Origin: Nanobdellota archaeon
GTDB taxonomy: Archaea; Nanobdellota; Nanobdellia; Woesearchaeales; JAHWHD01
DNA: 62,380 bases
Assembly (NCBI GenBank): GCA_034722435.1
Contig: JAYENX010000050.1
Span: 1 to 62,380, forward strand
Direction: 5' to 3'
The notes under the pieces are model-generated. The model worked only from the letters and a program-made list of their open reading frames with translations, did no database searches and had not been told where the DNA came from. Positions 5,419 through 46,952 of the stretch are shown here, in pieces. The first letter of the stretch is position 1. The number at the start of each line of letters is the position of its first letter. The position numbers and the translations under genes are program-made.

Positions 5419-5451
5419 TATTTATAAACAAACTCTGTTTCTGTGTACACT

Positions 5452-6801
5452 ATGGTACTTGACAAACTTGGCGGCTCTTTAAAGAATACACTACAAAAAA
5501 TAGCCAGTTCCATGTTCGTAGATGAAAAATTAGTAAACGAATTAGTTAAAGATATCCAGCGCGCTTTACTTCAATCAGATGTAAATGTTAAACTTGTTTT
5601 TGAACTAACAAACTCTATCAAAAAAAGAATCCTAAAAGAAGATACACCTGCGGGACTAACTAAAAAAGAATATTTAATAAATGTAGTATATGAAGAACTA
5701 ACCCAATTCTTGGGAGCAAAAGCTCACGAAATTAACATAAATAAAAAACCTACAAAAATTATGCTTGTAGGTCTTTTCGGTAACGGTAAAACTACAACAG
5801 CTGCTAAACTTGGAAAATATTTTCAAAAACGTCAATCAAAAGTTGCATTAATATCAACCGATACATGGAGACCTGCAGCTTTCGAACAACTTAAACAGCT
5901 AGGAGGACAAATCAATGCTGATGTTTTCGGAAACCCTGAACTAAAAGATCCTATTAAAATCTATAAATCTTTTGAACCTAAACTTTCAAAATACGATATA
6001 ATTATAATTGATACAGCAGGACGTGACGCACTTTCTGATGAACTGATTGAAGAACTTAACAGTATCAACAACGTCGTTCAACCTGACGAAACAATACTTG
6101 TAATGGCGGCCGATGTTGGACAAGCAGCACAAAAACAAGCAGAAACATTTGCAGAAACATGCAAAGTATCTGGCGTAATAATAACAAAGCTTGACGGTAC
6201 TGCTAAAGGTGGTGGCGCATTAACCGCTTGTTCAGTAACTAAAGCTCCAGTCAAATTCATAGGTATAGGCGAGAAAATTGACGACCTTGAAGTTTTTAAC
6301 CCTGAACGGTTCGTAGGACGACTTCTCGGAATGGGAGATCTTGCTACATTACTTGAAAAAGCTCGAGATGCTATCTCAGAAGAAGATGCTCAAGACCTAG
6401 GTAAGAAATTTTTGAAAGGTAAATTCAACCTTCTTGACCTTTACGAACAAATGCGTGCAATGTCAAAAATGGGCCCTCTAGGTAAAATAGTCGAAATGAT
6501 TCCCGGATTTTCACAACTCAAACTCCCTAAAGATGCTATCAAGGTACAAGAAGGAAAATTAAAAAAATGGCGAAATATAATGGACAGCTGTACAAAAAAA
6601 GAACTTGAAGAACCAGAAATAATTTCAAGAAACAGAATTGACAGAATTTCTCGAGGTTCAGGTTGTGGAGCCAGCGAAGTAAGAGAGCTCCTTAAACAAC
6701 ATAAACAAGCAAAAAAGATGTCAAAAATGCTCAAACCAGGCAAAGGAAATAACATGCAACAAATGATGAAAAAGTTCCAAGGTAAATTTCCGGGTAAATA
6801 A
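5452..6801 (+). CDS. srp54: signal recognition particle protein SRP54
   Basis: GTPase motifs GLFGNGKTTT, DTAGR and TKLDG, plus a Met-rich M domain. The canonical N-terminus MVLDKLGGSL starts at ATG 5452. The GTG at 5443 is rejected. Confidence 0.95.
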   Translation: MVLDKLGGSLKNTLQKIASSMFVDEKLVNELVKDIQRALLQSDVNVKLVFELTNSIKKRILKEDTPAGLTKKEYLINVVYEELTQFLGAKAHEININKKPTKIMLVGLFGNGKTTTAAKLGKYFQKRQSKVALISTDTWRPAAFEQLKQLGGQINADVFGNPELKDPIKIYKSFEPKLSKYDIIIIDTAGRDALSDELIEELNSINNVVQPDETILVMAADVGQAAQKQAETFAETCKVSGVIITKLDGTAKGGGALTACSVTKAPVKFIGIGEKIDDLEVFNPERFVGRLLGMGDLATLLEKARDAISEEDAQDLGKKFLKGKFNLLDLYEQMRAMSKMGPLGKIVEMIPGFSQLKLPKDAIKVQEGKLKKWRNIMDSCTKKELEEPEIISRNRIDRISRGSGCGASEVRELLKQHKQAKKMSKMLKPGKGNNMQQMMKKFQGKFPGK

Positions 6802-15212: not shown

Positions 15213-15647
15213 TCACTTTTTATTTAAATCATCAGTTATTACGTGTTTTTCCAATTCCTTAATCAATCGAGGTATCTCCCTAACTGCTTCTTTAACTGTC
15301 TCTATATCAATATTATCCCCATAATAATTGATTCCATTCCTTAACCTTCTATATCTATCAAACTTTTTATAAACAGATTCCTCATTTAAAACATCCCTCA
15401 AAAAATAACTGATAGATATATGATCTAAAAACTTATATCCATACAAATAACCAAGAGCTTCGCAGTATTCTCTTAAACCTTCATACAATTCTCTTAAAAT
15501 TGTTTTAGTGGAATTAATATTCAAAGATATCAATTTAGCAGTCATAACAGCCTGAGTTGAAGACTTAAACAAACTTAAAGCACGTATTTTATTTAAATTG
15601 ACTTTTTTAACTTTACCTTCACCTAAACAGAACTCAAAATTCATCAT
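15213..15647 (-). CDS. HEPN-domain protein (pair 1)
   Basis: All-helical 144-aa protein with FDRYRRLRNGINYYG. It is paralogous to the ORF at 30359-30778, and its start overlaps the stop of the upstream NTase. Confidence 0.65.
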   Translation of the reverse strand: MMNFEFCLGEGKVKKVNLNKIRALSLFKSSTQAVMTAKLISLNINSTKTILRELYEGLREYCEALGYLYGYKFLDHISISYFLRDVLNEESVYKKFDRYRRLRNGINYYGDNIDIETVKEAVREIPRLIKELEKHVITDDLNKK

Positions 15648-16174
15648 ATAACCTCTAACTCACCAGATAAAACAATACCATTACAAATGTTATTCACCAA
15701 ATTAGGATTTGATTTCTTCATATTTTTCCAGTCCTTTTTACTAAATTTATGTATAGATACTTTTCTATTCAGTATCTTCTCATATTTCTTAACAGAAAAA
15801 TCTTTATCAACATTGGAAATTAAACAAATATCTATATCACTGGTTAAATCATCCATTGCAGAAGCATAACTTCCAAATAAAACAATAACTGGAAAGTCAA
15901 ACTTTTGTTCCAAATCTTCAACAAGATTAGACTCTCTAATTTTTTCAAAGTTATAATAAAATTTCAAATTCAAAGTTTTTTTAGTTAAAAACAACCTAAA
16001 AAACGAATACACTCCTTCTTTTTTTAAAAACAAAAACCCCTCTTTGACTAACATATTAAGATACTGTCTAACAGTAGTATGATTAATTTCTAAAATTCTT
16101 GCAAGTTCCCTAATACTAAATTTCCTATTAGGATCTTCAAAAAAAGATTTAAGAATGGTTAGTTTTCTTTCCAT
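15644..16174 (-). CDS. winged-HTH + minimal nucleotidyltransferase (MNT-like, pair 1)
   Basis: wHTH segment FSIRELARILEINHTTVRQYLNMLVKEGFL. Polbeta-type NTase motif FGSYASAMDDLTSDIDI (G[SG] ... DxD). Confidence 0.7.
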   Translation of the reverse strand: MERKLTILKSFFEDPNRKFSIRELARILEINHTTVRQYLNMLVKEGFLFLKKEGVYSFFRLFLTKKTLNLKFYYNFEKIRESNLVEDLEQKFDFPVIVLFGSYASAMDDLTSDIDICLISNVDKDFSVKKYEKILNRKVSIHKFSKKDWKNMKKSNPNLVNNICNGIVLSGELEVI

Positions 16175-17488: not shown

Positions 17489-17767
17489 TTATAAATTTTT
17501 ATAAATATTCTTTCTATGACCTACTTTGATTACCAAGATAAGCAATTTACCATTATCAATATCCATTAATATCCTATAATCGCCCACCCTTAACTTAAAA
17601 ACATTATCACCAACCAGCTTCGTAACATAAGATTCAGGCCTTATTCTAATCCTCTGCAAAGAATTGATTATCCTTTTTTGAATATCTTTTTCCAATTTAA
17701 GGAATTGTTTTTTAGCCTTATCGGAAAATAATAAATCATACACGAAAAAAACACCTCGTTTTTTCAT
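17489..17767 (-). CDS. RelE/ParE-family type II toxin
   Basis: FKLRVGDYRILMDIDNGKLLILVIKVGHRKNIY matches the RelE/StbE C-terminal signature. The ORF is 92 aa. Confidence 0.8.
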   Translation of the reverse strand: MKKRGVFFVYDLLFSDKAKKQFLKLEKDIQKRIINSLQRIRIRPESYVTKLVGDNVFKLRVGDYRILMDIDNGKLLILVIKVGHRKNIYKNL

Positions 17768-17801
17768 AATCTAAAAAGTTCAAAGAAATTTTGAAAGACA
17801 T

Positions 17802-18020
17802 TTACAAACCTGCTTCTTTTTTAACTTGTTCCAGAGAATAAACCATTCCCTTCTTTATATCTGCACGCGCTTCTGCAATTTCCTTTTTAGTCTCTTCACT
17901 TATCTCCATTGTGTCATCTATCATATCCCAAATTACCTCTTCATAAGTCTCATTATCGTATAACTTTCGCTTAGTCAAAGTCTGTTGCAAATTCTCACTA
18001 ATCTGTATTGTTGTCACCAT
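17802..18020 (-). CDS. putative antitoxin partner of RelE
   Basis: A small (72 aa) acidic ORF directly upstream of the toxin. A BRE/TATA (cgaaaattttatatac) lies about 27 nt upstream of the ATG. Confidence 0.55.
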   Translation of the reverse strand: MVTTIQISENLQQTLTKRKLYDNETYEEVIWDMIDDTMEISEETKKEIAEARADIKKGMVYSLEQVKKEAGL

Positions 18021-18087: not shown

Positions 18088-18999
18088 TCAACCAGCCATT
18101 CGAAATTCGCCCACGTAATAATCAGGTTTAGAATTAACGACTTTTTTATTCTTTGTTTCTGAATGTTTTCCTACAACAGAAATACCCATACATGAAGATT
18201 GGAGAGTCATCGCATACTCTACTGCCTCTCTCACATCTAAATCATCCGATAAAATCCTTACATCTTCTCCAGCCATTTCAGCAATAGCGTACGCTGTAGA
18301 AACTAAATTAAGGTCAGCAGTTACACCGTTATGAAACTTTTCAATCGAATCTCTCACTCCAGATATAGAAATATTATGTACTCTATCAGATAAATCTCTA
18401 CAAATATTTGTAATCTTATCCTTCAACCTATCCCTTTTCTCAGGCTGTTTACAAAGTTCATTCGCTATACCTTCATACAACAATTCACAATCAGGCTCAT
18501 AATTAAACTCTCTAGCAGCAATATTCATTGCTTCCGTTCTATACATATCCATTGCAAGGTCTGTAAGCTGCCTTACAACACTTCTATCATGCATATACGC
18601 CTTTACAAGCCCAGGATTATCACGTGCAACTTCATAAGCCAAAGTCTTAGTCAATAACCCGCGAAACTGTTCAAAAAACTCACCAGTCTCAAAATCATGA
18701 ACTCTTGAAGAATCCTTTCTAAACAATCTAGAAATACTAAGAGTGTTATTATATTTATATATACTATTACCATATTTCCGTTCAAATTTTCGCAAAGCTT
18801 CAGCACCAAGATTACGCTTAGCAAACTCAATACCCATCCTTTTAGCATTAATCAAAGGATCAAACTTAACAGACTGTTGCTCGGCATTTTTCCAAGCATC
18901 AACCTCTCCAAGAACTTTAACAGTAACTCGATCATCTTTTCTTAAATGCGTTTTATCAATATCTTCAAGGCTACAAGTATCTAATATTGTAATAGTCAT
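18088..18999 (-). CDS. hypothetical protein, possibly a PIN-like nuclease split by a ~190-aa helical insertion
   Basis: N-terminal strand TILDTCSL and C-terminal ADLNLVSTAYAIAEMAGEDVRILSDDLDV resemble the first and last acidic PIN motifs. The start at ATG 18999 fits the promoter geometry. The ATG at 19017 is too close to the TATA box. Confidence 0.35.
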   Translation of the reverse strand: MTITILDTCSLEDIDKTHLRKDDRVTVKVLGEVDAWKNAEQQSVKFDPLINAKRMGIEFAKRNLGAEALRKFERKYGNSIYKYNNTLSISRLFRKDSSRVHDFETGEFFEQFRGLLTKTLAYEVARDNPGLVKAYMHDRSVVRQLTDLAMDMYRTEAMNIAAREFNYEPDCELLYEGIANELCKQPEKRDRLKDKITNICRDLSDRVHNISISGVRDSIEKFHNGVTADLNLVSTAYAIAEMAGEDVRILSDDLDVREAVEYAMTLQSSCMGISVVGKHSETKNKKVVNSKPDYYVGEFRMAG

Positions 19000-19020
19000 A
19001 TCCAAGAGATAAACCATCGA

Positions 19021-19165: not shown

Positions 19166-19405
19166 CTATTCATCAGAATTTTTAAACATTTTACCCGTAG
19201 CTGCAAGATATCCTAAACCAGCTAATGCACCCATAAAAGTGCCATATCCAACACAATATTGAACACCTTGGTCATATTTCATCTTCTCTGCAACTTTAAA
19301 AGGAGCTGTCCACTCTCCAGGTTCAAAATGATCAGTTGTAGCAGAAGCCACTAATCCTGCAATTCCTAATAACACTGCTGCTGCAGCTTTACTTTTTAAT
19401 GCCAT
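19166..19405 (-). CDS. small secreted/membrane protein (79 aa) with N-terminal signal and C-terminal Gly-rich TM
   Basis: An AAGGTGA Shine-Dalgarno. N-terminus AAAAVLLGIAGLVASA. C-terminus GTFMGALAGLGYLAATGKMFK. Confidence 0.5.
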   Translation of the reverse strand: MALKSKAAAAVLLGIAGLVASATTDHFEPGEWTAPFKVAEKMKYDQGVQYCVGYGTFMGALAGLGYLAATGKMFKNSDE

Positions 19406-19519: not shown

Positions 19520-19777
19520 ATGGACGCAGTTATAGTAAGCTTCAGACGAAGCAGACACACCCAGAAGGATAATCATATGATTTTATCAGTTCCAGGTATC
19601 GAAGATAAGGAAAAAGCAACCCCTTTAGTAGGTAAAACAGTCGTTTTCACCACAGAATCCAAAAAGGAGATTAAAGGCAAAGTTGCAGCAGCACACGGCA
19701 CCAAAGGAGCCATTAGAGCCATTTTCGAGAAAGGAATGCCTGGTCAAAGCCTAGGAAAGAAAGTAAAAATCGAATAA
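19520..19777 (+). CDS. rpl35ae: 50S ribosomal protein L35Ae (eL33)
   Basis: RRSRHTQ...LVGKTVVF...GKVAAAHGTKGAIRAIFEKGMPGQSLGKKV matches the L35Ae signature. A TATA box lies about 27 nt upstream. Confidence 0.85.
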   Translation: MDAVIVSFRRSRHTQKDNHMILSVPGIEDKEKATPLVGKTVVFTTESKKEIKGKVAAAHGTKGAIRAIFEKGMPGQSLGKKVKIE

Positions 19778-19923: not shown

Positions 19924-20058
19924 TTAACCACATATACTTAGAGCAGTAGGTATAATATCTGTAGCTACAAGATATGTTAGAATGATTCCAAATAATAAAC
20001 CTGTAACAAACCCTTTCACAAGATCTGCAAAGCTTGTAATAAAACCTCTTTTATCCAT
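19924..20058 (-). CDS. 44-aa single-TM mini-protein downstream of secA
   Basis: Not in the ORF track because it is under 60 aa. Sequence MDKRGFITSFADLVKGFVTGLLFGIILTYLVATDIIPTALSICG. An AAGGTGAT Shine-Dalgarno sits 5 nt upstream. It lies 60 nt after the secA stop on the same strand. Confidence 0.45.
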   Translation of the reverse strand: MDKRGFITSFADLVKGFVTGLLFGIILTYLVATDIIPTALSICG

Positions 20059-20118
20059 GACTATCACCTTCTTTTAAACAATTAATAGAATATGAGTTTA
20101 TAAATATTTCTAATTATT

Positions 20119-22605
20119 TCAGAGCACCGAATCAAGGAACCCTGCATTAATCCTATCCCACATTTTTTGATACATCAGATTACCATCATCTCCGTACCTC
20201 CTTTTAGGCGGAATTGTAGAATTTTTCTGAGTCATATAAATAATATCTTTTAATTTACCCATTTCAGTAAGATGTTCTTGCCATGAAACATCAATCGCAT
20301 TTAACATAGCCTTTCGTTCTACTCCTCCCATAACCTCAGAACCAAGACGTTTAACTCTTTTAACGTACGCATCATGCACTTTAATATACAAAAATTTAGC
20401 CACATCTTCTTCAGATTCTAAAACCTCGGCTGTGACATCAGCATCTAAAACAACATTTGCCCATTCAGATAATCGATCATAATCAACATTTGATTCTTCA
20501 GAAAGTATTTTAACTGTGGACACTACTCCATCCCATAATCTATCAAGAGTTTTGTCTTGATTATATTCGGTAGAAGTCAATAAACTCTGCCTTAAAGAAT
20601 ATGTCGCAGCTCTATGTCCCTCCAATACATCTGAAAATTCTTTAAGAGATTTTCTCCCATCAAAATGCATAGATTCAACACGTTTTTGAGAATCTTTTAT
20701 CAACCTAGTAACCTGACCAGATTCAATAGATTCGCCATATTCACCAAGTCTACGAAAAACTTTTTTTACCATCTCCCCACCAAATATTTTAATTATATCA
20801 TCTTCAAGAGAAACTTTAAATCTTGACTCACCAGGATCACCCTGCCTACCACCTCTGCCTCTTAACTGATTATCGACTCTCCTCGAATGATGCCTTTCAG
20901 TTCCAAGAATATATAAACCACCAAGCTCAATAATTTCATCATGTTCAGTTTGCCACTTTTCTAAAGCCTCAGAACCTTCAGGCTTTTTTCCACCAAGCTC
21001 AATATCTGTCCCTCTTCCAGCCATGTTTGTTGCAACAGTCACAGCACCTTTCTTACCAGCATCTGCAATAATCTTACCTTCTTCTTCATGATTCTTTGCA
21101 TTAAGAACATTATGAGGAATTTTTAATTCCTTCAACATCCCACTAAGATTCTCTGAAGCTTCAACAGATTTAGTACCAATCAAAATTGGCCTTCTTTTTT
21201 CATACGACTGTTGCACATCCTTAACCACAGCTTCCCATTTTTCTTTTGCAGTTAAATATACTTCATCAAGTTGTTCTTTTCTAATTAACGGTTTATTAGT
21301 AGGTATTTCAACCACTTCCAAATTATAAGTCTTATTAAATTCTGCAGCATCAGTCATAGCAGTACCAGTCATTCCAGATAGTTTATCATATAAACCAAAA
21401 AAGTTTTGAAACGCTATCTGAGCAATAGTTCTATTCTCTGATTTTACACGAACACCATCCCTCAAATGTCTCGCCTCAACAGCTTGATGTAAACCCTCAC
21501 TCCAACGCCTTCCAGGCTGTTTTCTACCAGTTTGCTCATCAATAATGACAATCTCATCATCATAAACAACATAATCTTTATCTTCATTATAAAGTTCTTT
21601 TGCATATAAAGACTGTAAAACTTGGTGTTCCATAACAGCTTGCTCAGGATTATGAAACTCTACTTCCTCATTGACAAGATCTGAAAGCTTTCTTTCAGCC
21701 TTTAATGTACCATCAGAAGTCAATACTATTGTATGTTTCTTTTTATCAACTGTATAATCTCCACCCTCTTTAAGGATATTCGCTGCCTCTAAAGCATTAT
21801 AATATCCTTCAACAGGAGTATCAGTCTGTCCCGAAATTATCAAAGGCGTTCTAGCTTCATCAATAAGTAAACTATCAACCTCATCAACCACAGCAAAAGC
21901 AAAACCTCTCTGAACCTGTTCATCAACTGAAAGAGCCATATTATCTCTCAAGAAATCAAACGCGAACGTATTACCAGTACCATAAGTAATATCACAATTA
22001 TAAGCTTCTTTTTTTTCTAATTCTGAAGAATCTTGTTTAACTGTTCCAACTGTTAAACCTAAAAACTCATATACAGGTTTCATTAAATCCTTATCTCTAT
22101 CAGCAAGATAATCATTAACAGTTATAACGTGTACAGGATCTCCCATTAAAGCGTTTAGATAAGCAGGAAGTGTAGCTGCAAGAGTTTTACCCTCACCAGT
22201 CACCATCTCAGCAATCTTTCCTTGATGAAGAACCATACCACCTATAAGCTGAACATCATAATGTCTTTGTCCAATAGTACGTTTTGCAGTTTCTCTGACA
22301 ACAGCATAAGCCTCTGGCAGAAAATGATCAAACACTTTCTGCCTGATCTCAACTTTCTGTTTAGTAGATTTAGTATCATATTTTACTTTATCATAAATTG
22401 TTTGAATTCTTTCCCTAAACTCACCAGTTTTTGATTTTAAATCATCATCAGAAAGACTAGTAAGATGAGATTCAAGAGAATTAATCTTATCAATAGTTGG
22501 AGCTAAAACATCCAATTCACGTTCATTGCTACTGCCAAATACAGTCAATAAACCGTTATGTACAGCACCAGTCATAGTATGCCATATATCTGTTAAACCA
22601 ACCAT
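20119..22605 (-). CDS. secA: preprotein translocase ATPase SecA (bacterial type, no C-terminal zinc finger)
   Basis: N-terminus LLTVFGSSNERELD..INSLE..LSDDDLKSKTGEFRERI, Walker A MVTGEGKTLAATLPAYLNAL, DEAD-like VDEVDSLLIDEARTPLIISG, TNMAGRGTDI, and HHSRRVDNQLRGRGGRQGDPG. The start at ATG 22605 is 26.5 nt from the TATA centre. ATG 22575 is an alternative. The TTG at 22626 is rejected. Confidence 0.93.
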   Translation of the reverse strand: MVGLTDIWHTMTGAVHNGLLTVFGSSNERELDVLAPTIDKINSLESHLTSLSDDDLKSKTGEFRERIQTIYDKVKYDTKSTKQKVEIRQKVFDHFLPEAYAVVRETAKRTIGQRHYDVQLIGGMVLHQGKIAEMVTGEGKTLAATLPAYLNALMGDPVHVITVNDYLADRDKDLMKPVYEFLGLTVGTVKQDSSELEKKEAYNCDITYGTGNTFAFDFLRDNMALSVDEQVQRGFAFAVVDEVDSLLIDEARTPLIISGQTDTPVEGYYNALEAANILKEGGDYTVDKKKHTIVLTSDGTLKAERKLSDLVNEEVEFHNPEQAVMEHQVLQSLYAKELYNEDKDYVVYDDEIVIIDEQTGRKQPGRRWSEGLHQAVEARHLRDGVRVKSENRTIAQIAFQNFFGLYDKLSGMTGTAMTDAAEFNKTYNLEVVEIPTNKPLIRKEQLDEVYLTAKEKWEAVVKDVQQSYEKRRPILIGTKSVEASENLSGMLKELKIPHNVLNAKNHEEEGKIIADAGKKGAVTVATNMAGRGTDIELGGKKPEGSEALEKWQTEHDEIIELGGLYILGTERHHSRRVDNQLRGRGGRQGDPGESRFKVSLEDDIIKIFGGEMVKKVFRRLGEYGESIESGQVTRLIKDSQKRVESMHFDGRKSLKEFSDVLEGHRAATYSLRQSLLTSTEYNQDKTLDRLWDGVVSTVKILSEESNVDYDRLSEWANVVLDADVTAEVLESEEDVAKFLYIKVHDAYVKRVKRLGSEVMGGVERKAMLNAIDVSWQEHLTEMGKLKDIIYMTQKNSTIPPKRRYGDDGNLMYQKMWDRINAGFLDSVL

Positions 22606-22626
22606 ATCCTTACCATAGAAAAACAA

Positions 22627-22669
22627 CTATTTAAATGTTTCGTTTTGTTGCCACTATTAAGTGACTAAC
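22627..22669 (-). promoter_or_regulatory. Copy 3 of the conserved ~43-nt promoter element (secA promoter)
   Basis: The minus-strand reading is gttagtcacttaatagtggcaacaaaacgaaacatttaaatag. It contains a CGAAA BRE and a TTTAAATA TATA box. Confidence 0.6.
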
Positions 22670-22753
22670 AAACAGAAGCTTTAAATACAACTCACACATA
22701 CCAGTCAAGTAATAATAAGAATCATAATAAAAAACCTTACGGAGGGATAATAA

Positions 22754-23560
22754 ATGGTCAACGGAACATCAGCATCACCTACAGGATATTCAATAAGAGA
22801 TTCAAAAATAACTAAATATATCATAGGAGGACTCGCAGTAGCAACTTTATTAGGAAGTTTCGGATACCTTTTCTCAGGATGTTCATCTTCAAAACCTAAA
22901 AAACCGTCTAAACTTGAACAAACACTAGAATTTGGAAATGCTAAAGAAATCAAATTTCCAACAGGAAAAATTTCTAAAAAAGGTTTCAGACTTTACGATG
23001 TGTTAGGTGGTGTCATAAAAGGCGATAAACATGTTGAAGGAACAGGTTCACAATTTATCTGGAACAAAACCACTAACAAATTCAGCGTAAGAGTTGCTAA
23101 AGGTCTAGAAGTAGTTGATAAAATATACACAGATAGAGCTTGCACTCAAAAAATGGATGCAAAATTCATAGGTTATAGTGCAAATACTAAATCTGATGGA
23201 AGTGGTTTACACGGAACTGTGAATAAATACTGGAGATTAACAAACGGATCAGAAGTATCTAAAGAGTTCGCTCCAGCAAATAATCAGGCCTACACAAACA
23301 ATCTTGCAAAAGCTAACGAGTTTTTCACATACGCTAAAAATGCGCACGAAGAAAACATAAAAAACAGACATAAAAGAGCTATTGCAGCACAGAAAGCAAG
23401 TGCCGATAGGATTAAAGCACCAAACGCTAAAAAACCTAAAGCAACAGTTCCTGATAGAAATTTACCATCAGCTAGCACAGCAAATACATTTTTAGGAACA
23501 AGTGCATCCGCAAATAACGGAACAGTAACTCCTGCACTTCCAAAAGTTAGAACAAATTAA
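22754..23560 (+). CDS. lipobox-anchored surface protein, paralogous module shared with the ORF at 23630
   Basis: GGAGGG Shine-Dalgarno. TM/signal ending in LFSGC. GTGSQFIWNKTTNKFSVRVAKG and PANNQAYTNNLAKANEFFTYAK align with segments of the 774-aa neighbour. Confidence 0.6.
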   Translation: MVNGTSASPTGYSIRDSKITKYIIGGLAVATLLGSFGYLFSGCSSSKPKKPSKLEQTLEFGNAKEIKFPTGKISKKGFRLYDVLGGVIKGDKHVEGTGSQFIWNKTTNKFSVRVAKGLEVVDKIYTDRACTQKMDAKFIGYSANTKSDGSGLHGTVNKYWRLTNGSEVSKEFAPANNQAYTNNLAKANEFFTYAKNAHEENIKNRHKRAIAAQKASADRIKAPNAKKPKATVPDRNLPSASTANTFLGTSASANNGTVTPALPKVRTN

Positions 23561-23629
23561 TTGTTTTTATTTTTTTCAATAATTATTAAATTAAAAAGGG
23601 AATAAAACACTTATCGAGGAGGATAAATA

Positions 23630-25954
23630 ATGTCATTAATAGACAAAATAAAAAATTATATTCCATCAACCAGAACATTACTAAAAGGTACAGCAATCGG
23701 AATAGGCTTAGGACTCTTCGCTATGTATGCGGCAGCAAGCACTGCTGAAGCTAGAACTATTAAATTTGAAATTAAAGGAAAACAAAACCCTTACCAAGTA
23801 CTTCAAAAAAAAGGAGGAGATGATCAAAAGAGAGTTTACAAGTTCTTAGGAAAACAAAAAAAACCAAATTCAGGAAAAACACTTGCACACTGCCTAGGCG
23901 GTAAATATAAGGTTACTATAGATGATTCTACTAATGAAGTTACTAAAATAAAAGGAAAACTTCCTAGATGGTACAACCCATCTGTAAATGCAGCAACAAC
24001 AGCTCAAACAAGACAAAGTTCTAGAACTCAAACTAGAACCGCAGCTAATACTACAAAAAAAATAGCACAAGATAATAGCTACAAAATCAAAGTAAATTAT
24101 TATGATAAAAATGGTCAACCAAAGGGGTCTGCTTTCGAAGTAGTTCCAAACGGAAAAGTCCCTGAACAAGGTTGGAATCTTGAACATAAAGGAGACAACT
24201 TCATCTTTAACAAAGCACTTAATAGATTCAGAGTTAAATACGGCAAAAATAAAAGACCAAATGTTAAACAATTCTTTGGCGAGAAATACCTTAAATATAG
24301 CAGAAGAGAAATCTTCGGATTAGAAGGAGTTGTAAAAAAAGGCAAAGTTGGCGACAACATAAGTATATTCTTAGTAAAAGAATCAAAAGGTAAACCAGTT
24401 AAAGAACTTGAAAAGTATCCTATAAGTGCAAACAATCAAGCACACACAAATCTTAAACAAGACATAACAGATTATCTTAGTTTTGCATCAAAAGAATCAA
24501 AAAAAGCATTCAAACACCAAAGAAAAGAAGTGTTAGAAACTCTTAGTAACACAAGTAACATAAGAGTTCCTACAATGGGAAATCTTAAAACCTTTTTACT
24601 TGGTGGAAGCACACCTACTACTCCAAATAGAAATACAAGATTACCTTATGCTAACACAGGAAATACATACGTAGGCGCAAGTAATACAGCTAGTATAGGA
24701 GCAACAGGATTAGCTACCGCAGGTGCAGCAGCAACTATATACACTACAAATCCAGTATCAATAAGATCTGTGCCAAGTTCAACTACATCAACAACCAGTA
24801 CAGCAGCGACAAGAACAGTAACTTCGACAGCATCAACTGGAAGAACCACACCCACAACTCTAACAATAACATCAATAGCAAGTACAACTCCAACAACATC
24901 AGTAAGAAGTACACCCGCTACAACTAAAACAACAGACTCAAATTTAACAATGCCTAGTTATACATTACCAAAATCAACACCATTCAACATAAATTCAAAT
25001 AACAAAAGTACAACCCCTAAACCAAAAAGTAAAGCAAAACCAGTAACAAAACCAACAACTTTCACAGGCAACGAAAAAACTAATAAGAAAAAGAACCAAT
25101 ACGATTGGGGAAAAACAATTAAAATAAACCTTGGCAATAAAGTTATAAAATTCCAAGTTCAAGGAAAACCTCACAGTTATAGAGACGGTATATTTAACAG
25201 CGGAGAATGGGGCTTTAAAAGTTTTATAGGTAATCAAAAGAGAAACACAGGTTACAAATTAGTCAAAGATCTATACAAAAGTAAAAGTACTGAGATTAAT
25301 GCTATTAAAGATGTAAATGGAACTTTCACATATCAGAAGAAATCTAGCGGATGGGAGAAAGTAGTTATACCAGTAGAACCAAAAGTTGTAATATCAAAAC
25401 CTACAGCAGTACCTACTCCAACACCTAAACCTGCTAGAAGACGAATTAAACTTAGATCAACTCCAAAAGCAACACCAAAAAGAGTGGCTAAACCAACTCC
25501 CTCTGTTACACCAACTCCAAGTCCTACACCAAAACCAACAACAGTAGATGACTCAACATTTGACGGTATTTTTGAAAATCCTGAACCAAGATTTTTTAAA
25601 CCTACTAGAAGAGCTACTCCAACACCAACAGTTACACCAAGTCCTACTGCAACACCTACACCAACTCCAGCTACAACAGCAAGTGGAACAGTAACAGCTT
25701 CATCCACTCCTAAACCTAAAACATGGAAAGAATTTGATATACCTCCATCATTCATACCATTAATACCAAAACATATTACAACCGTAGAACAATTTCAAGG
25801 ATCTACTAAAAATGATATTAAAATAACGCATTCCCCAACAAAAGTCACATTAACACCAAAGAATAATATTATTGTAACATACGATGATGAAGTAACAAAA
25901 CCAGTTAAAGTACCACCATATATGCACAGGGAACTTAAAAGATTAAGAAAGTAA
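23630..25954 (+). CDS. large signal-anchored surface protein with two Thr/Ser/Pro-rich mucin-like tracts
   Basis: GAGGAGG Shine-Dalgarno. Signal GTAIGIGLGLFAMYAAASTAEA. Repeated basic beta-rich modules. T/S tract at ~24770-24940 and TP-rich tract at ~25400-25725. Confidence 0.6.
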   Translation: MSLIDKIKNYIPSTRTLLKGTAIGIGLGLFAMYAAASTAEARTIKFEIKGKQNPYQVLQKKGGDDQKRVYKFLGKQKKPNSGKTLAHCLGGKYKVTIDDSTNEVTKIKGKLPRWYNPSVNAATTAQTRQSSRTQTRTAANTTKKIAQDNSYKIKVNYYDKNGQPKGSAFEVVPNGKVPEQGWNLEHKGDNFIFNKALNRFRVKYGKNKRPNVKQFFGEKYLKYSRREIFGLEGVVKKGKVGDNISIFLVKESKGKPVKELEKYPISANNQAHTNLKQDITDYLSFASKESKKAFKHQRKEVLETLSNTSNIRVPTMGNLKTFLLGGSTPTTPNRNTRLPYANTGNTYVGASNTASIGATGLATAGAAATIYTTNPVSIRSVPSSTTSTTSTAATRTVTSTASTGRTTPTTLTITSIASTTPTTSVRSTPATTKTTDSNLTMPSYTLPKSTPFNINSNNKSTTPKPKSKAKPVTKPTTFTGNEKTNKKKNQYDWGKTIKINLGNKVIKFQVQGKPHSYRDGIFNSGEWGFKSFIGNQKRNTGYKLVKDLYKSKSTEINAIKDVNGTFTYQKKSSGWEKVVIPVEPKVVISKPTAVPTPTPKPARRRIKLRSTPKATPKRVAKPTPSVTPTPSPTPKPTTVDDSTFDGIFENPEPRFFKPTRRATPTPTVTPSPTATPTPTPATTASGTVTASSTPKPKTWKEFDIPPSFIPLIPKHITTVEQFQGSTKNDIKITHSPTKVTLTPKNNIIVTYDDEVTKPVKVPPYMHRELKRLRK

Positions 25955-25994
25955 TCACTCAAAAGGGACAACAAAAGCGAAACATTTATATATT
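25951..25994 (+). promoter_or_regulatory. Copy 4 of the conserved ~43-nt promoter element
   Basis: The sequence gtaatcactcaaaagggacaacaaaagcgaaacatttatatatt overlaps the stop codon of the 774-aa gene. The expected transcription start near 26015 gives a 34-nt leader with an AGGAGTG Shine-Dalgarno before the ATG at 26049. Confidence 0.55.
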
Positions 25995-26048
25995 AGCTCG
26001 ATTTATTCTTTAATATTAACTATAATAATCATAAAGGAGTGATACAAA

Positions 26049-27983
26049 ATGTCAATATGGAACTATTTATTTGGTGAAAAAAAAGAATCTCTTGAAGCAG
26101 CACTAGATACGGATACAAACGGTACAAATTCCACACCAAGACCCGATATTACAGAAACAACTGATGAATCTGATTATACTACAAGTTCTACAACTGAAGA
26201 ATCAACTGAATCAGAAACTTCTACACCAACTCCTAAACTAGCACCAGTGATTCCATCAATAACACCAGTTACACCAACTTCTGACCCTGATGAAACATAT
26301 AAACAATTACTAAAAGATGCCACCCCCGAAAGTAACGAAAAAATAAAAGAATTTGGTCAATATTTATTTACTAACCTTAACGAAGAACTTGGAAATATCA
26401 CAATAGATGATGAAGAAAAGAAAAGAGACTGGATTATAGCATCAGATTTAGCAACCGCTGTTAAACTTAGAAACCAAGATTTAGCAGATTATGTAATAAG
26501 ACATCACCAAGGAGAAATAACATTATCAGATGAAAAGCAAACTCATTTTGATAATTTTATTGATTATACTAAAAAACAAATCATTATTGGTAAAGGAGAC
26601 GACAAAGTAGAAAAATACAAAACACGTAACACTTCAGATCTAAATGAAAGAGATCAGACAGCATTAGAAGTTCTTCTTGAAAAAGCTATTGAACATTATG
26701 ATAGAGCAGAATCTGTAATCACTAAAGCAGATGAACTTATAGACTCAAAAGAACTTTCACTAGCACAAGCACTTTTGAACCAATACGATCACACTACTAA
26801 AACAGACAAAAAAGATATCTTTACTAAACAAATGGAAATTCTTGAAAAAGGAGAAACAATCTACAACACAGCTACTCAAGATAAATTAGACGAAAATAGA
26901 AATAATGTTGAAGTTGTAAGAACAGCTCTAAAATCTCTTGACGCATTACTTAATGTAAAAACCCCATATAAAAATGGCGAACCAACTGAAGATAGTAAAA
27001 ATTTAGTTGAAAAAAATATGGCTTTATCAAAAAAAGCTAACCAAGACAGATTAAGAGTTAACGTACAAGAATATATTAACCAAAGTCTAGCCGGAGAACA
27101 AGATACAGACAATCAAAAAATAGGAGCTATCTTTGATACAACCACCCAAATAAGTTCAGAAGGACTTATGACAGAGTATGAAAAACTAAAAGAAGAAGCA
27201 GACACTGAAAAAAATACCAGTGTTAAAATTCAAAAACTTGAAATTGCCTATGCTCTTACTCCGATAACAATAGATGAACAAAGAGAATTAGTTTGTAAAA
27301 CAAATAATGCTAAAGAACATTTCTGGAACAATGCAGAATACGGAAAAGATTTAGCAGAAGCATTAATAGAAACTGGCGATTATGAAAAAGCTCTAGGACC
27401 TATCAACTTTAGCCTTACAATTGCAAGAGGTTTACCCGCACAAGGAAATAAAGAGACAGGAAAAAGAAAAGGTTTAGTCTCAAAACTAACTTTTAAAGGT
27501 TATACAGCAGCATCAAATTTAGCTGAACAAGTAAAAGCTCAAGGTCAATACGAAGCCGCTGACACACTTTACGAACAAGCACTCAATATGCTAGGAGAAC
27601 ATGTTAGTCAACAAACCGAAGAAAAACAAAAAAGACTAAAACCACAAGAAGAAGATCTAATTAATAAATACAGTAACAATAAAGAAGCATGGGCAAACGC
27701 AACTGCACAAAAACCTGCAAGCGAAATAACTAAATCAGAAATTAAGAACGCATTCGGATATTTCGTTGAAACAAGCAGAGACGAACAAGGAGATCCACAT
27801 CTCGAAGCAATACCTGATAACATAAGAGAAAGAGAATCCCAAAACGTACTTAGTTCAATTAAATACGAATTTGGTAAAATGAATGATGTTCGTGAAAAAT
27901 TGGAAACTGCATATGTCTTAAATCCAAACGACTCAGATTTAAAAGAAATGTTAGGACACTTCGAATTATTTCAAAGAAATTAA
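26049..27983 (+). CDS. hypothetical acidic protein: T/S/E-rich N-terminal region plus long helical (TPR-like) body, no signal peptide
   Basis: 644-aa ORF with a Shine-Dalgarno. The N-terminus MSIWNYLFGEKKE is followed by TETTDESDYTTSSTTEESTESETSTPTP. The C-terminal helical repeats contain Y/A/L patterns (GQYEAADTLYEQALNMLG). Confidence 0.55.
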   Translation: MSIWNYLFGEKKESLEAALDTDTNGTNSTPRPDITETTDESDYTTSSTTEESTESETSTPTPKLAPVIPSITPVTPTSDPDETYKQLLKDATPESNEKIKEFGQYLFTNLNEELGNITIDDEEKKRDWIIASDLATAVKLRNQDLADYVIRHHQGEITLSDEKQTHFDNFIDYTKKQIIIGKGDDKVEKYKTRNTSDLNERDQTALEVLLEKAIEHYDRAESVITKADELIDSKELSLAQALLNQYDHTTKTDKKDIFTKQMEILEKGETIYNTATQDKLDENRNNVEVVRTALKSLDALLNVKTPYKNGEPTEDSKNLVEKNMALSKKANQDRLRVNVQEYINQSLAGEQDTDNQKIGAIFDTTTQISSEGLMTEYEKLKEEADTEKNTSVKIQKLEIAYALTPITIDEQRELVCKTNNAKEHFWNNAEYGKDLAEALIETGDYEKALGPINFSLTIARGLPAQGNKETGKRKGLVSKLTFKGYTAASNLAEQVKAQGQYEAADTLYEQALNMLGEHVSQQTEEKQKRLKPQEEDLINKYSNNKEAWANATAQKPASEITKSEIKNAFGYFVETSRDEQGDPHLEAIPDNIRERESQNVLSSIKYEFGKMNDVREKLETAYVLNPNDSDLKEMLGHFELFQRN

Positions 27984-27984
27984 A

Positions 27985-29604
27985 TTAACGAATTTTCTTT
28001 TTTATTTCAGTTGGAAGTAATTTAAAAGCTTCAATAACCTTCTTTCGCAAATCAACAAAAATAGCAAATTCTTTTTGAATCTCTGCTCGCGATTTATCTA
28101 AAGACTCATAATTTTTTTTCAAAGTTTCTGCAGCAGTTTTAAGATGTCCCTCAATCATTGTAAGATGATGCATAGCCTTATCCCATACACCCATTTTTCC
28201 AAAAGCTCTCAAACCCATAACTGAATAAGTTTTATATGTATTCGCAAGCAAAGTCCATAACTGTTCTACCGCTATCTGTACAGGTTTCAAACGTTCAGAA
28301 ACTATTTTAACATTACTTTCATAATCAGTCATCAAAATTACCCTAGAATTCTTAATTTGCAAAAGTAATTCCCTTAACTCTTCATTCGCTGTATGAAGAA
28401 GATGAATATCTGCTTGAGATTTATCATCAACTAACTTCTTATCGGCACGTGAAAGAGTATTATATTTATTAAGATGCGCATCATAAGTTTTAAGCATGGT
28501 TTCGGCTCTATTAATTTCACTAATAAGATGTTTATCAATATTGAACTCTTTCCCTAACACCGTAATAATTGATTTAAACTCCTTAGAACCATGCTCGAAA
28601 TTACCAATCAAATCTTTTAATATTTTATTAAATGCATTAAAAGAATCATTAAACATCAAAAAACCTTTTTTAATGTAAGTACCATCTTTCGAATATTTTA
28701 AGTCTCTAGCTCCCTGTTTAAGAACTGCAACTATCTTAAGAAGTTGAGCAAGATGTTTATACTGAAGATACTCCTCAGCTTCAAGAGCTCTAATATCTAC
28801 TAAAACACGTTCATCAAGTTTTTTCTCAAGCGCTAACAACTTTTGCGCACTCTCAAGTTCAGCCTCTTCTTTCTTCTCCAGTTTACTTTCAGCAACTGTA
28901 GCCGCTTTTGCCCCAGGACTACTCGGAGTCTTATCCCCGCCACCGCCAAAGACTTTATCCCATAACGATGAACCTCCACCAGAACCGCCTTCACCCATTT
29001 GACCAGCTGCCCATGAAAACGCTTCTAATATATGTATAACTAACATGAACATGAAAAACAACTGCAATAAACCAAACCATTTAATTGTTTCAAACAAGAA
29101 CGGAAGATCACTACCACCCTGAACAGCAGCCATTGTAGAAGAAACTATCATTATAGACAAGGCATCAATTATACCTTTCATCACAGGATGACTGAAATTT
29201 TTATACATCTTAAACCCGAGCCATATAAGCAGCACAGGCAACATAATCCCGACTATACCAGCATAAAGCTCAGCCATTTTCAATACATAAGTACCTGGTA
29301 ATAATATTACTGAGAACAAAGACAATCCAAGAGAAATAACTGTACATATTCTAGGTTGTTTAAAAAATTTAAACGATCCATAATAAAACAATGCAAACAA
29401 TACTATAAACAATACAAACTTAGCAAACACTATAAAAGATTCACTCGGTCCTACACCGAACTCAACCAATATTTTTCTTAAAAGATTGTATACAGGTTCA
29501 GGTACAAGATCAAACTGTGAAGGATTATACGCAGATACACTTCCAATATTTAGAAAAGATAAAACTGCTACAATTATACCTAATAACGTAATCCTCTTTT
29601 TCAT
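27985..29604 (-). CDS. hypothetical polytopic membrane protein with Gly-rich linker and ~300-aa coiled-coil domain
   Basis: Signal MKKRITLLGIIVAVLSFLNIGSVSA, about 6 TM segments, linker GEGGSGGGSSLWDKVFGGGGDK, then heptad-rich helical sequence. A promoter lies in the 29673-29690 arm. Confidence 0.55.
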   Translation of the reverse strand: MKKRITLLGIIVAVLSFLNIGSVSAYNPSQFDLVPEPVYNLLRKILVEFGVGPSESFIVFAKFVLFIVLFALFYYGSFKFFKQPRICTVISLGLSLFSVILLPGTYVLKMAELYAGIVGIMLPVLLIWLGFKMYKNFSHPVMKGIIDALSIMIVSSTMAAVQGGSDLPFLFETIKWFGLLQLFFMFMLVIHILEAFSWAAGQMGEGGSGGGSSLWDKVFGGGGDKTPSSPGAKAATVAESKLEKKEEAELESAQKLLALEKKLDERVLVDIRALEAEEYLQYKHLAQLLKIVAVLKQGARDLKYSKDGTYIKKGFLMFNDSFNAFNKILKDLIGNFEHGSKEFKSIITVLGKEFNIDKHLISEINRAETMLKTYDAHLNKYNTLSRADKKLVDDKSQADIHLLHTANEELRELLLQIKNSRVILMTDYESNVKIVSERLKPVQIAVEQLWTLLANTYKTYSVMGLRAFGKMGVWDKAMHHLTMIEGHLKTAAETLKKNYESLDKSRAEIQKEFAIFVDLRKKVIEAFKLLPTEIKKKIR

Positions 29605-29843: not shown

Positions 29844-30368
29844 ATGTTCAAAGAAATAAACACATTAAAACCATTCTTAGAAGAACCAAATAAAGAGTTC
29901 AATGTAAGAGAACTTGCAAGATTGCTTAATATCGCACCAGCAACAGCAAGCAAAAAACTAAAATATTTCACAAAAAATAAAATCCTAAAACAAAGAGAAG
30001 AAAGAATGCTTCTTTTATATAAAGCAGATCTTGACTCAGAATTTTATAAAGATCTTAAAATATACTACAATATAAGAAAAATCAAAAAATCCGGACTAAT
30101 AGAAATCTTAAACAAATTCTACCTCAAACCCTCTATCACACTTTTCGGTTCAACTGCTACAGGCCTCGACACTAAAACAAGCGACATTGACTTGTTCGTT
30201 GAAACTGAACAAAAATCACAGATAAAAGAACTCAAAACATTTGAAAAAAAAATAAACAGAACCTTACAAATACTAACCGCCTCAGATATTAAAAAACTTA
30301 AAAACCCTCATTTAATAAACAATATACTTAATGGTATTACTATACAAGGAACTCTAAAATGGATTTAA
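29844..30368 (+). CDS. winged-HTH + minimal nucleotidyltransferase (MNT-like, pair 2)
   Basis: wHTH FNVRELARLLNIAPATASKKLKYFTKNKIL. NTase motif FGSTATGLDTKTSDIDLFV. Paralog of the ORF at 15644-16174. Confidence 0.7.
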   Translation: MFKEINTLKPFLEEPNKEFNVRELARLLNIAPATASKKLKYFTKNKILKQREERMLLLYKADLDSEFYKDLKIYYNIRKIKKSGLIEILNKFYLKPSITLFGSTATGLDTKTSDIDLFVETEQKSQIKELKTFEKKINRTLQILTASDIKKLKNPHLINNILNGITIQGTLKWI

Positions 30369-30778
30369 ATGAATGTTTCAAAAAAGGACTTATTAAAAAA
30401 ACCAAGATAGATACCGAACTCTCAAAATCTTTAATTGAAATGTCCAATATTAAAGAAAATACTGTTAAAAAAGCAAATATAGATAATATAAACATATCAG
30501 TCTATGTCTCAGTAGCTTATGATTCATTAAGAGAAATTCTCGAAGCAATCTGTATAATGCAAGGGTATAAAGTAATCTCACACATTTGTATAGGAAAACT
30601 TTTAAAAGAATCTATTACCCAAGAAGACTATCAAGAATTCGACAGAGTCCGCTGGATTCGAAACAGTATCAATTATTACGGAGAAAAAGTTGAATTTCAG
30701 CAAGGCAAAGAAATCATAAACAAGATTTTCAATATAAAGAGAAGATTATTAAATAACAATTTAAAGGAATTAAACTAA
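30359..30778 (+). CDS. HEPN-domain protein (pair 2)
   Basis: FDRVRWIRNSINYYG aligns with pair 1. It overlaps the NTase by 10 nt, and its stop TAA (30776-30778) overlaps the gltX ATG. Confidence 0.65.
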   Translation: MDLNECFKKGLIKKTKIDTELSKSLIEMSNIKENTVKKANIDNINISVYVSVAYDSLREILEAICIMQGYKVISHICIGKLLKESITQEDYQEFDRVRWIRNSINYYGEKVEFQQGKEIINKIFNIKRRLLNNNLKELN

Positions 30779-40765: not shown

Positions 40766-40814
40766 ATTTATATATTAGTAATGAATATTTAAGAAGTAAA
40801 TGTGAGGTGTGGAA

Positions 40815-41963
40815 ATGGACAGCTTTATTAAAAATGCTACAGAAATTTCTGAAGAAGAAATACCCAATACTGATATTCAACCAACGCAGAAAATGCACGA
40901 ATCAAGAAGCAAGAACGATGTTGACGCAGAATTAGCTGCAATGCTTGCAAAGCACAAAGCTACTATCAAAGTTATAGGTACTGGCGGAGGCGGCAACAAC
41001 ACTATTAACAGAATCACAGAGGTAGGTATCAAAGGGGCTGAAACAATTGCCTTGAATACAGATGCTCAAGACCTCCTTTATACTACTGCAGATAAAAAAA
41101 TTTTACTAGGTAAAGATATAACACAAGGACTTGGCGCAGGATCAATCCCAAAAATTGGTGAAGAATCTGCTCGCGAATCCGAAGGTGAAATTAAAAAAGC
41201 GATGCAAGGCGCTGACATGGTTTTCATAACATGCGGTCTCGGCGGCGGTACAGGTACAGGTTCTGCACCTATAGTAGCAGAAGTCGCTAAGAAAATGGGC
41301 GCTCTAACTGTTTGTATCGTAACAGTCCCTTTCAATATGGAAGGCCAGCGAAGATACGAAAACGCAATGTATGGACTTGAAAGACTTGAACAACTAGCCG
41401 ATACATTAATCGTAATTCCTAACGATAAATTAATCGAGCTTGCTCCAGATTTACCACTTCATACTGCTTTCAAAGTAGCTGATGAAATATTAACTAACGC
41501 TGTAAAAGGAATTGCAGAACTCGTAACAAAAGCAGGTCTTGTAAACCTTGACTTTGCAGATATCAGAGCTGTCATGGGTAACGGCGGTGTAGCTTTAATC
41601 GGTGTTGGAGAATCAGACACAGAAAACAGAGCAGTTGAAGCTGTTGAAAAAGCTTTACAAAACCCTTTACTTGACGTTGACGTTTCAGGCGCAAACGGAG
41701 CACTTATCAATGTCGCAGGAGGTCCTGATATGACACTTGATGAAGCTAAAGCAATTGTTGAAACAGTATCAGAACGTCTCCAGGATGATGCAAGAATTAT
41801 ATGGGGTGCTCAAATTTACGATGACCTTCAAGGTCTTATAAGAACAATGTTAATTGTTACAGGAGTCAAATCATCACAAATTTTCGGCTCTACTAATAAA
41901 GAAGTTTCAAATAAAAAGAAAAAAGAGATTGAGAATACATTAGGAATTGAATTTGTGGACTAA
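40815..41963 (+). CDS. ftsZ: cell division GTPase FtsZ
   Basis: [13 protein letters not shown] and [22 protein letters not shown] Shine-Dalgarno 5 nt before the ATG at 40815. The GTG at 40809 is rejected. Confidence 0.95.
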
Positions 41964-41965
41964 AA

Positions 41966-42166
41966 ATGGAATTTCAAAAACAAGAAAAGCAAAGTACATG
42001 GTTTAAAATTAAAAGATTCGGTAAAGAATGTAAACGAGTCTTAAAAATTACAAGAAAACCTTCAGGTGACGAATTCAAGACAATTGTCAAAATTTCGGCT
42101 ATTGGACTTGCAGTCATCGGATTAATTGGATTCGTAATAGCAATAATTAAACAGGTGTTTTTTTAA
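41966..42166 (+). CDS. secE: protein translocase subunit SecE / Sec61gamma
   Basis: 66 aa with one C-terminal TM. ECKRVLKITRKPSGDEF motif. Conserved position upstream of spt5/L11. Confidence 0.85.
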   Translation: MEFQKQEKQSTWFKIKRFGKECKRVLKITRKPSGDEFKTIVKISAIGLAVIGLIGFVIAIIKQVFF

Positions 42167-42167
42167 A

Positions 42168-42632: not shown

Positions 42633-42673
42633 AAACTAAAAAATATTTTTTTTATTATATTTTATTATCAACC

Positions 42674-42970: not shown

Positions 42971-43080
42971 TGTAAAATATCAGAACATAACCCAGTTTAT
43001 ATACATTATTGTAATCAAATATATACACAGATTCCACAAACTTTATAAATAACATATTTTTCCAGTAATTCATTAAGAAA

Positions 43081-46134: not shown

Positions 46135-46137
46135 TCT

Positions 46138-46947: not shown

Positions 46948-46952
46948 CTAAT

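Follow-up and report, generated by a model that had tools for sequence, protein, structure and literature searches.

The stretch of DNA analysed here, called the window, is 62,380 nt long, and all coordinates given are positions in it. The block under study, positions 19924–29604, contains secA, a gene for a translocation ATPase. A gene for a membrane protein of 44 amino acids (aa) lies downstream of secA on the same strand. Divergent from secA are genes for two predicted exported proteins of 268 and 774 aa, followed by a gene for an acidic 644-aa protein and, convergent with the latter, a gene for a 539-aa membrane protein. A first-pass annotation had listed these genes, all of which are confirmed (Table 1), and had proposed that they may form a SecA-dependent export or cell-surface apparatus. 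It passed over the most unusual point of the locus, which is the presence of a bacterial SecA in an archaeon.

The secA reading frame spans 20119–22626 on the minus strand. The ATG at 22605 is the likely start, and the same start is used in the database copy, P0001 (828 aa). The Pfam domains SecA_DEAD, PPXD, P-loop, and Wing/Scaffold are all present in the protein, with E values from 1e-115 to 1e-30; the models PF07517, PF01043, PF21090, and PF07516 each score far over the gathering score. The protein also passes the NCBIfam equivalog cut-offs, with scores of 937.1 vs. 814 for PRK12904/NF009538 and 895 vs. 800 for TIGR00963. It falls under every SecA2 cut-off, i.e., 640 vs. 930 for TIGR03714, 735 vs. 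1085 for TIGR04397, 543 vs. 725 for TIGR04221, and 547 vs. 1100 for NF012136. Among PDB entries, E. coli SecA matches best (E value 1e-197), and the two proteins align end to end. In the alignment to E. coli SecA, the ATPase motifs are found to be intact: GEGKT (Walker A), DEVD (Walker B), and, in the Arg-finger region, TNMAGRGTDI and RGRGGRQGDPG.

The window SecA thus shares its four domains, its ATPase motifs, and an end-to-end alignment with canonical SecA1, as represented by the E. coli protein (PDB 6S0K and 2FSF) and the short SecAs of Patescibacteria. The window SecA has no C-terminal SEC-C zinc finger, and several of the SecAs among its matches also lack this tail. Unlike canonical SecA, the protein has an N-terminal insertion and a longer two-helix-finger tip without the canonical Tyr, and, at 42–51% identity to bacterial SecAs, it forms a branch of its own. 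A further difference is that its gene lies on an archaeal chromosome behind a B recognition element (BRE) and TATA box, and the protein would work with SecYE-beta, not with SecYEG. By its domains, family scores, and ATPase motifs, the protein belongs to the SecA family; its unusual aspects are the domain of life of its host and the archaeal channel partner that this host implies.

The host is an archaeon. Archaeal genes on the secA contig include those for L35Ae, SRP54, LonB, class-I GluRS, thermosome, FtsZ, SecE, Spt5-NGN, L11, and an archaeosortase-like protein. The SecA family ranges over bacteria and plastids, and an archaeal contig falls outside that range, which makes the locus unusual but casts no doubt on the family of the protein. 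The organism is a low-GC archaeon that looks like one of the small-genome DPANN type, and the first-pass reading of the host as an archaeon holds. Within 40809–43818, the native archaeal secE lies in a 200-bp gap between ftsZ and spt5, and the L11 gene comes next; the arrangement is the classic archaeal one, ftsZ-secE-nusG/spt5-L11. The SecE protein is a component of the channel on which SecA would depend. The presence of SRP54 on the same contig indicates that the co-translational targeting pathway is present. As an aside, the L11 reading frame (43081–43818) encodes 245 aa, and the L11 domains reach only to residue 137, beyond which the protein extends by about 100 aa.

According to reviews, no archaeal SecA has been identified, and the energy source of archaeal post-translational Sec export is unknown (PMC6098224, PMC7613921). 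Full-text literature searches returned no report of any archaeal SecA; subscription-only literature was outside their scope, so an earlier mention is possible. Searches with the sample accessions likewise returned no paper.

The promoter and composition of secA are those of a resident gene. The promoter consensus of the genome, GAAACATTTAWATA, is read as a BRE plus TATA box and occurs at 22 sites vs. 6.3 expected, upstream of many unrelated genes. The secA promoter matches it perfectly, and its closeness to the ATG implies a leaderless or near-leaderless mRNA. For the 644-aa gene, the first-pass annotation had noted a copy of the secA promoter element. The likeness is there, but the element is the generic consensus; the idea that it marks a regulon shared with secA is thereby ruled out. 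The secA gene has a GC content of 0.355, a third-position GC content (GC3) of 0.205, and a codon usage cosine of 0.90, all typical of the window. Between the lineages of the window and its closest relative, described below, the ratio of nonsynonymous to synonymous substitution rates (dN/dS) of secA is about 0.27, close to that of neighbouring genes and above that of L35Ae (0.10). Both secA copies are full-length (~830 aa) and free of frameshifts. To summarize, secA is intact, under purifying selection, and fully adapted to the composition of its host.

Table 1. Positions of the genes and signals discussed in the text, in window coordinates.
Feature	Position	Strand	Remarks
SRP54	5443..6801	+	Pfam SRP54, SRP_SPB, and SRP54_N domains
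Ribosomal protein L35Ae (archaeal/eukaryal)	19520..19777	+	Pfam PF01247, E 4e-19; convergent with the 44-aa gene
44-aa conserved membrane protein	19924..20058	-	N-terminal amphipathic stretch, then one transmembrane helix; begins 60 nt past the secA stop
Shine-Dalgarno of the 44-aa gene, AAGGTGAT	20063-20070	-	inside the 60-nt spacer between secA and the 44-aa gene
Promoter of the 44-aa gene, GAAATATTTATAAA	20097-20110	-	inside the same 60-nt spacer
secA, complete bacterial-type (SecA1-like) translocation ATPase, 828 aa	20119..22605	-	Pfam, NCBIfam, and PDB match
BRE/TATA promoter of secA, GAAACATTTAAATA	22628..22641	-	perfect consensus match; ends 22 nt before the ATG
268-aa basic (pI 10.0, net +23) lipobox-type exported protein (predicted)	22754..23560	+	divergent from secA across 148 bp
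774-aa very basic (net +81) modular secreted or anchored protein (predicted)	23630..25954	+	one module paralogous to the 268-aa protein
BRE/TATA promoter of the 644-aa gene	25979..25992	+	17/19-nt match to the secA element; generic consensus
644-aa acidic (net -39) cytoplasmic helical protein	26049..27983	+	no transmembrane segment; conserved convergent pair with the 539-aa gene
539-aa membrane protein	27985..29604	-	signal-like N-terminus, five to six hydrophobic helices, Gly-rich linker, all-helical C-terminal half of ~300 residues
secE (Sec61-gamma), native archaeal, 66 aa	41966..42166	+	Pfam PF00584, score 26.3 vs. cut-off 22.7

The relatives of the window SecA are few. Exact-match lookups with it returned no record. 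In a search of 5.8 billion proteins, the closest SecA was P0002, which is 59% identical and is encoded on an independent Logan contig, L081; all subsequent matches were at most 49% identical. A scan of representative genomes with the SecA sequence found bacterial loci only, at 40–49% identity, many of them in Patescibacteria. Two of the next-best matches were examined for context, and both lie in bacterial gene neighbourhoods. An identity matrix and a neighbour-joining tree were made from an alignment of 83 SecAs; here, the archaeal pair is 42–51% identical to bacterial SecAs, whose median identity among themselves is 53%. On these comparisons, secA is judged to be bacterial in origin. The tree and the matrix do not name a donor, as the archaeal pair stands on a branch of its own.

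Patescibacteria share habitats with DPANN archaea. Given this, and the many Patescibacteria among the best matches of the genome scan, a mis-joining of a Patescibacteria-type secA to an archaeal contig during assembly or binning has to be weighed. The gene order on contig L081 speaks to this point: it reads 268-like gene, secA, 44-aa gene, L35Ae, 79-aa gene, 309-aa gene, the same as in the window. Both junctions of secA therefore recur in an independent assembly from another sample, and the encoded proteins are 59–82% identical, hence different DNA; it follows that the window is not a chimera. In addition, the perfect host-type BRE/TATA element upstream of secA, the match of its GC, GC3, and codon usage to the host, and the lack of any bacterial SecA more than 51% identical all argue against a mis-join. 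An artefact is extremely improbable and effectively refuted.

Further loci show what the neighbourhood looks like where secA is missing. Those compared were the window; L081 and L084, which come from one sequencing run (SRR7614767); L083 (Ga0071116_1001671); and L082 (Ga0209542_10008144). The last two were found by scanning JGI metagenomes with the 44-aa protein and by looking up the contigs of 539-aa homologues. The closest relative, L081/L084, keeps the arrangement of the window, with L084 carrying the 644/539 pair. Contig L083 is collinear with the window through genes for a 199-aa protein, a 380-aa protein, histone, ParA, GluRS, a 539-like protein, a 1007-aa protein, two envelope proteins, the 44-aa protein, and L35Ae, and the synteny reaches the 79-aa gene; GluRS is 69% and L35Ae 73% identical to the window proteins. 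No secA is found within this syntenic block. At L082, the 44-aa gene is convergent with L35Ae, a 539-like fragment is nearby, and LonB is 71% identical to that of the window; again, no secA is present at the locus. Thus, the linkage of secA to its neighbours is kept in the closest relative and is absent from the loci of the two others.

It follows from the secA-less order that the 44-, 539-, and 644-aa genes are not SecA accessories; the three are independent of SecA. The proposal of one SecA-dependent apparatus of five genes does not survive this comparison, given that the order of the 539-, 644-, and 44-aa genes is kept without secA in L083, and the 44-aa gene and L35Ae stand together without secA in L082; loss of the linkage in related genomes had been named at the outset as an outcome that would refute the proposal. 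For the most part, the comparison does not support a SecA-centred apparatus: of its five genes, three are independent of secA, and the 268/774 pair is compatible with a link to SecA. The site of secA is precise: on one side is the divergent promoter that serves the variable envelope genes 268 and 774, and on the other is the promoter of the 44-aa gene.

We propose, with a probability of roughly 0.7, that a housekeeping-type secA of bacterial origin entered an archaeal lineage by horizontal transfer and came to lie in an older, lineage-specific neighbourhood. The transferred gene would have landed between two existing promoters, that of the variable envelope pair and that of the conserved 44-aa gene, next to L35Ae. 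Its product would use ATP to drive the post-translational passage of signal-peptide proteins through the host's archaeal SecYE-beta channel. The likely clients would be the abundant exported proteins of the organism, among them the adjacent, extremely basic, Thr/Pro-rich 268- and 774-aa proteins. That a bacterial-type SecA can be retained after transfer to a different host lineage has a precedent in the SecA of chloroplasts and cyanobacteria. The SecY/E partner in plastids is also of bacterial origin; unlike in plastids, at least SecE is archaeal here. With an intact SecA that is under selection, driven by an archaeal promoter, and encoded on one contig with archaeal secE and SRP54, the lineage offers a natural test of whether an archaeal channel can serve a bacterial motor. 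A gene of the core machinery also joins the list of bacterial genes taken up by small archaea.

Several points weigh against transfer of a working translocation motor. The SecY gene of the organism is not in the window, and a bacterial SecA would have to dock on an archaeal SecY. The loop of the two-helix finger in the archaeal SecAs is divergent and 2–3 residues longer than in bacteria; its sequence is IYMTQKNSTIPPKRRY in the window copy, IRFMVPQQKKPEIEY in that of L081, and LRGYAQKDPKQEY in E. coli. The position of E. coli Tyr794, the aromatic or bulky residue at the finger tip, is not kept, although the bulky residues of a Tyr-Met or Phe-Met are found nearby. In the L081 copy, the TPLIISG and LRGR motifs are altered. 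SecA diverges as fast as its orphan neighbours, being 59% identical over the split that leaves L35Ae 81% identical, which suggests a relaxed or auxiliary role. Further, gain of secA, rather than loss, is a parsimony inference from four loci only, and L083 and L082 are known as contigs, so secA may lie elsewhere in those genomes.

Some of these points would also suit a passenger gene, i.e., a transferred secA that is no longer a translocation motor and is drifting towards loss or towards another ATPase or chaperone role. The 59% identity is low for a SecA when L35Ae is at 81%, the finger tip is divergent, the L081 copy has motif changes, and two relatives lack secA at the locus. However, both copies have remained full-length at ~830 aa without frameshifts, dN/dS of about 0.27 indicates selection, and the window copy has all of its ATPase motifs, a score above curated equivalog cut-offs, and a consensus promoter. 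Decay or repurposing is accordingly reckoned to be improbable, and transfer of a functional secA is preferred.

The remaining question about secA is its relationship to the two divergent genes. The 268-aa protein has a hydrophobic segment at residues 22–41 and the sequence LFSGC at residues 39–43, with YFSGC in the L081 orthologue, a lipobox-like pattern matched by eye. It was described at the outset as a lipobox protein diverging from secA, and that description holds. The enzyme for lipid modification or cleavage of archaeal lipoproteins is unknown (PMC7613921). No lipoprotein machinery of the Lgt/Lsp type is found among the window's open reading frames scanned for families, which are most of those of at least 110 aa. 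In the search of 5.8 billion proteins, the 268-aa family has two members, the sole homologue being the L081 orthologue at 63% identity. An AlphaFold2 model made from a three-sequence alignment has a mean predicted local distance difference test (pLDDT) score of 35.7 and is unusable.

The 774-aa protein begins with a moderately hydrophobic segment that ends in ASTAEA. The segment and the Ser/Thr/Pro tracts, at about residues 330–480 and 585–710, are as first described, but the N-terminus resembles a cleavable signal peptide more closely than the proposed anchor. There is also a weak internal repeat. The modules that the first-pass annotation considered paralogous between the 268- and 774-aa proteins are indeed related, if weakly (BLASTP E 6e-10, 26% identity over 216 residues). 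The protein has no family or PDB match in Pfam, NCBIfam, and PDB sequences. In the partial orthologue at L081 (1–330, minus strand), the signal peptide runs straight into a module that matches window residues 485–575. Module order thus differs between the two orthologues, which indicates domain shuffling in a surface protein. Together with the 539-aa protein, the 268- and 774-aa proteins look like envelope-type proteins.

The 268 and 774 families are confined to the two secA-bearing genomes. In the same slot, L083 has two genes of like architecture, with a lipobox-like LYQGC and a Thr/Pro stalk and with net charges of +1 and +26. Homology of these to 268 and 774 is not demonstrable, the best result being a weak motif match (hhalign E 0.012). 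The slot looks like a place of quick evolution or replacement of envelope proteins. Orphan families, signal peptides, lipobox-like Cys residues, low-complexity Thr/Pro stalks, shuffling, and rapid turnover in a fixed slot are also traits of the lineage-specific, fast-evolving surface proteins of episymbionts, DPANN archaea included. Family searches detected no known adhesin or S-layer domain in the envelope proteins. This rest of the cluster is more ordinary than secA, a slot of quick-turnover orphan envelope proteins that are candidate host-contact surfaces.

The confinement of the 268 and 774 families to the secA-bearing assemblies would also fit a dedicated export unit, in which secA, 268, and 774 are one block and SecA specifically exports extremely basic surface proteins that are hard to translocate; this is what is left of the first-pass proposal. 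The divergent arrangement across the 148-bp spacer is kept in both secA-bearing loci. The net charges of +23 and +81 exceed the +1 and +26 of the positional counterparts in the secA-less L083, and so many positive charges, moving against an inside-negative membrane potential, might plausibly need an ATP motor. Against this, the secA-bearing genomes number two and are each other's closest relatives, such that co-occurrence may reflect shared ancestry. Moreover, the similar architecture of the L083 slot genes and their motif match leave room for 268 and 774 being fast-evolving orthologues that pre-date secA, and each gene stands behind a generic promoter.

Accessory SecA2–SecY2 islands of Gram-positive bacteria export serine-rich repeat adhesins. 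The window resembles these islands in layout only, by having a SecA gene beside genes for large, Ser/Thr-rich, and maybe glycosylated surface proteins. Unlike an accessory SecA, the window SecA scores as canonical and below all SecA2 cut-offs, and no genes for SecY2, Asp1-3, or a glycosyltransferase (Gtf) are found nearby among the window reading frames scanned. In addition, the organism has, to all appearances, no other SecA. An accessory SecA2 system is thus rejected. A dedicated export unit is unlikely on the balance of these points, and a bacterial housekeeping secA, transferred into an existing neighbourhood, remains the preferred explanation. It is likewise doubtful, and a little more so, that a hybrid translocase of bacterial SecA and archaeal SecYE-beta exports a co-evolving, basic, Thr/Pro-rich 268/774 pair that mediates contact with a host cell. 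If true, Archaea would thereby have their first natural system of post-translational Sec export driven by ATP.

Directly upstream of SRP54, at 4408–5418 on the plus strand, is a distant member of the exosortase/archaeosortase family of membrane proteins (Pfam E 6e-11), which satisfies the TIGR04178 signature. Neither the 268- nor the 774-aa protein shows a C-terminal sorting signal.

None of the five neighbours of SecA belongs to a nameable family, as was first noted: searches of Pfam, NCBIfam, PHROGs, PADLOC, and PDB sequences were blank for the 44-, 268-, 774-, 644-, and 539-aa proteins. Searches for homologues in large databases, which agree with this, covered three of the five: the 268- and 539-aa proteins (5.8 billion proteins) and the 644-aa protein (1.84 billion representatives). 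The five are orphans, with two to four relatives each. Structure prediction, which had been put forward as a route to their identity, did not provide one. The AlphaFold2 model of the 539-aa protein, with a pLDDT of 57.6, fared little better than that of the 268-aa protein, and a Foldseek search with it against the PDB retrieved generic helical bundles only, none at E ≤ 1e-3.

The 44-aa reading frame, which starts 60 nt downstream of secA and has a strong Shine-Dalgarno, is confirmed as a real gene by its orthologues and dN/dS. There are four orthologues at 50–82% identity, two of them in loci without secA (58% identical in L083 and 55% in L082). Its dN/dS is 0.16–0.26, and its own promoter and Shine-Dalgarno are kept in four of four loci. 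Thus, it is a transcription unit of its own and is unspecific to SecA. Its best PDB match, 8ZEE chain 1, a subunit of a photosystem II repair complex, is a chance match of one transmembrane helix to another. The possibility that it is Sec61-beta was also rejected: there is no Pfam match at E ≤ 0.1 (PF03911), no Sec-beta is among its PDB matches, and hhalign gives a probability of 0.8% against M. jannaschii Sec-beta.

The 644-aa protein is acidic and helical, as first described, and has no transmembrane segment. Its proposed TPR-like body is reduced to one TPR-like motif at residues 487–514, and all TPR models are below the Pfam cut-off; a single sub-threshold motif, rather than several repeats, does not make a TPR-repeat protein. 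Among the 1.84 billion representatives, the protein's only full-length match is itself, the other 21 matches being to the one TPR motif. Its orthologues are a protein of L084 (45% identity) and the C-terminus of the 1007-aa protein of L083 (22% identity, E 4e-5). As for the 539-aa protein, the description given at the outset is borne out: the N-terminus is signal-like, there are several hydrophobic helices, and a Gly-rich linker precedes a C-terminal part that is all helical. The C-terminal helical domain is probably cytoplasmic. The 539-aa family has four members in the search of 5.8 billion proteins, and in the secA-less L083, the gene adjoins GluRS and the 644-like gene.

The conserved, secA-independent neighbourhood includes two more genes, which lie beyond L35Ae. 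One encodes a 79-aa orphan protein (19166–19405, minus strand), signal-like at its N-terminus and hydrophobic at its C-terminus; the other encodes a soluble orphan protein of 309 aa (18088–19017, minus strand). Both are conserved beside L35Ae in the window, L081, and L083, with identities of 54–56% and 28–54%, respectively. In the window, L081, and L082, L35Ae and the 44-aa gene are neighbours; in L083, a gene pair for a nucleotidyltransferase and a HEPN protein separates them. The window has two paralogous pairs of nucleotidyltransferase and HEPN-like genes, resembling MNT/HEPN toxin–antitoxin systems, at 15213–16174 (minus strand) and 29844–30778 (plus strand). One such pair flanks the 539-aa gene, and its L083 equivalent is the one between the 44-aa gene and L35Ae. 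The different positions indicate that such pairs move around within the neighbourhood. A further toxin–antitoxin-like pair, recognised by eye, is a 92-aa reading frame with a RelE/ParE-like C-terminal motif together with a 72-aa acidic one, at 17489–18020 (minus strand).

Farther from secA, positions 43838–48176 hold four genes on the minus strand. Two are tandem paralogues with seven transmembrane segments and a DUF835 domain; the others encode a KaiC-like ATPase and a secreted PQQ/FG-GAP beta-propeller protein. The run may be a membrane signalling or surface unit. Near the start of the window, at 687–1808 on the minus strand, is a gene for a 373-aa protein of the MATCAP (microtubule-associated tyrosine carboxypeptidase) family (E 4e-53), unexpected in an archaeal genome; the family is named from its eukaryotic members. 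Finally, the GC skew of the plus strand is negative over almost the entire window, 1–62380 (cumulative -5.8), and the AT skew is mostly positive. Because the skews hold across the window, the strands are asymmetric in composition regardless of gene orientation.

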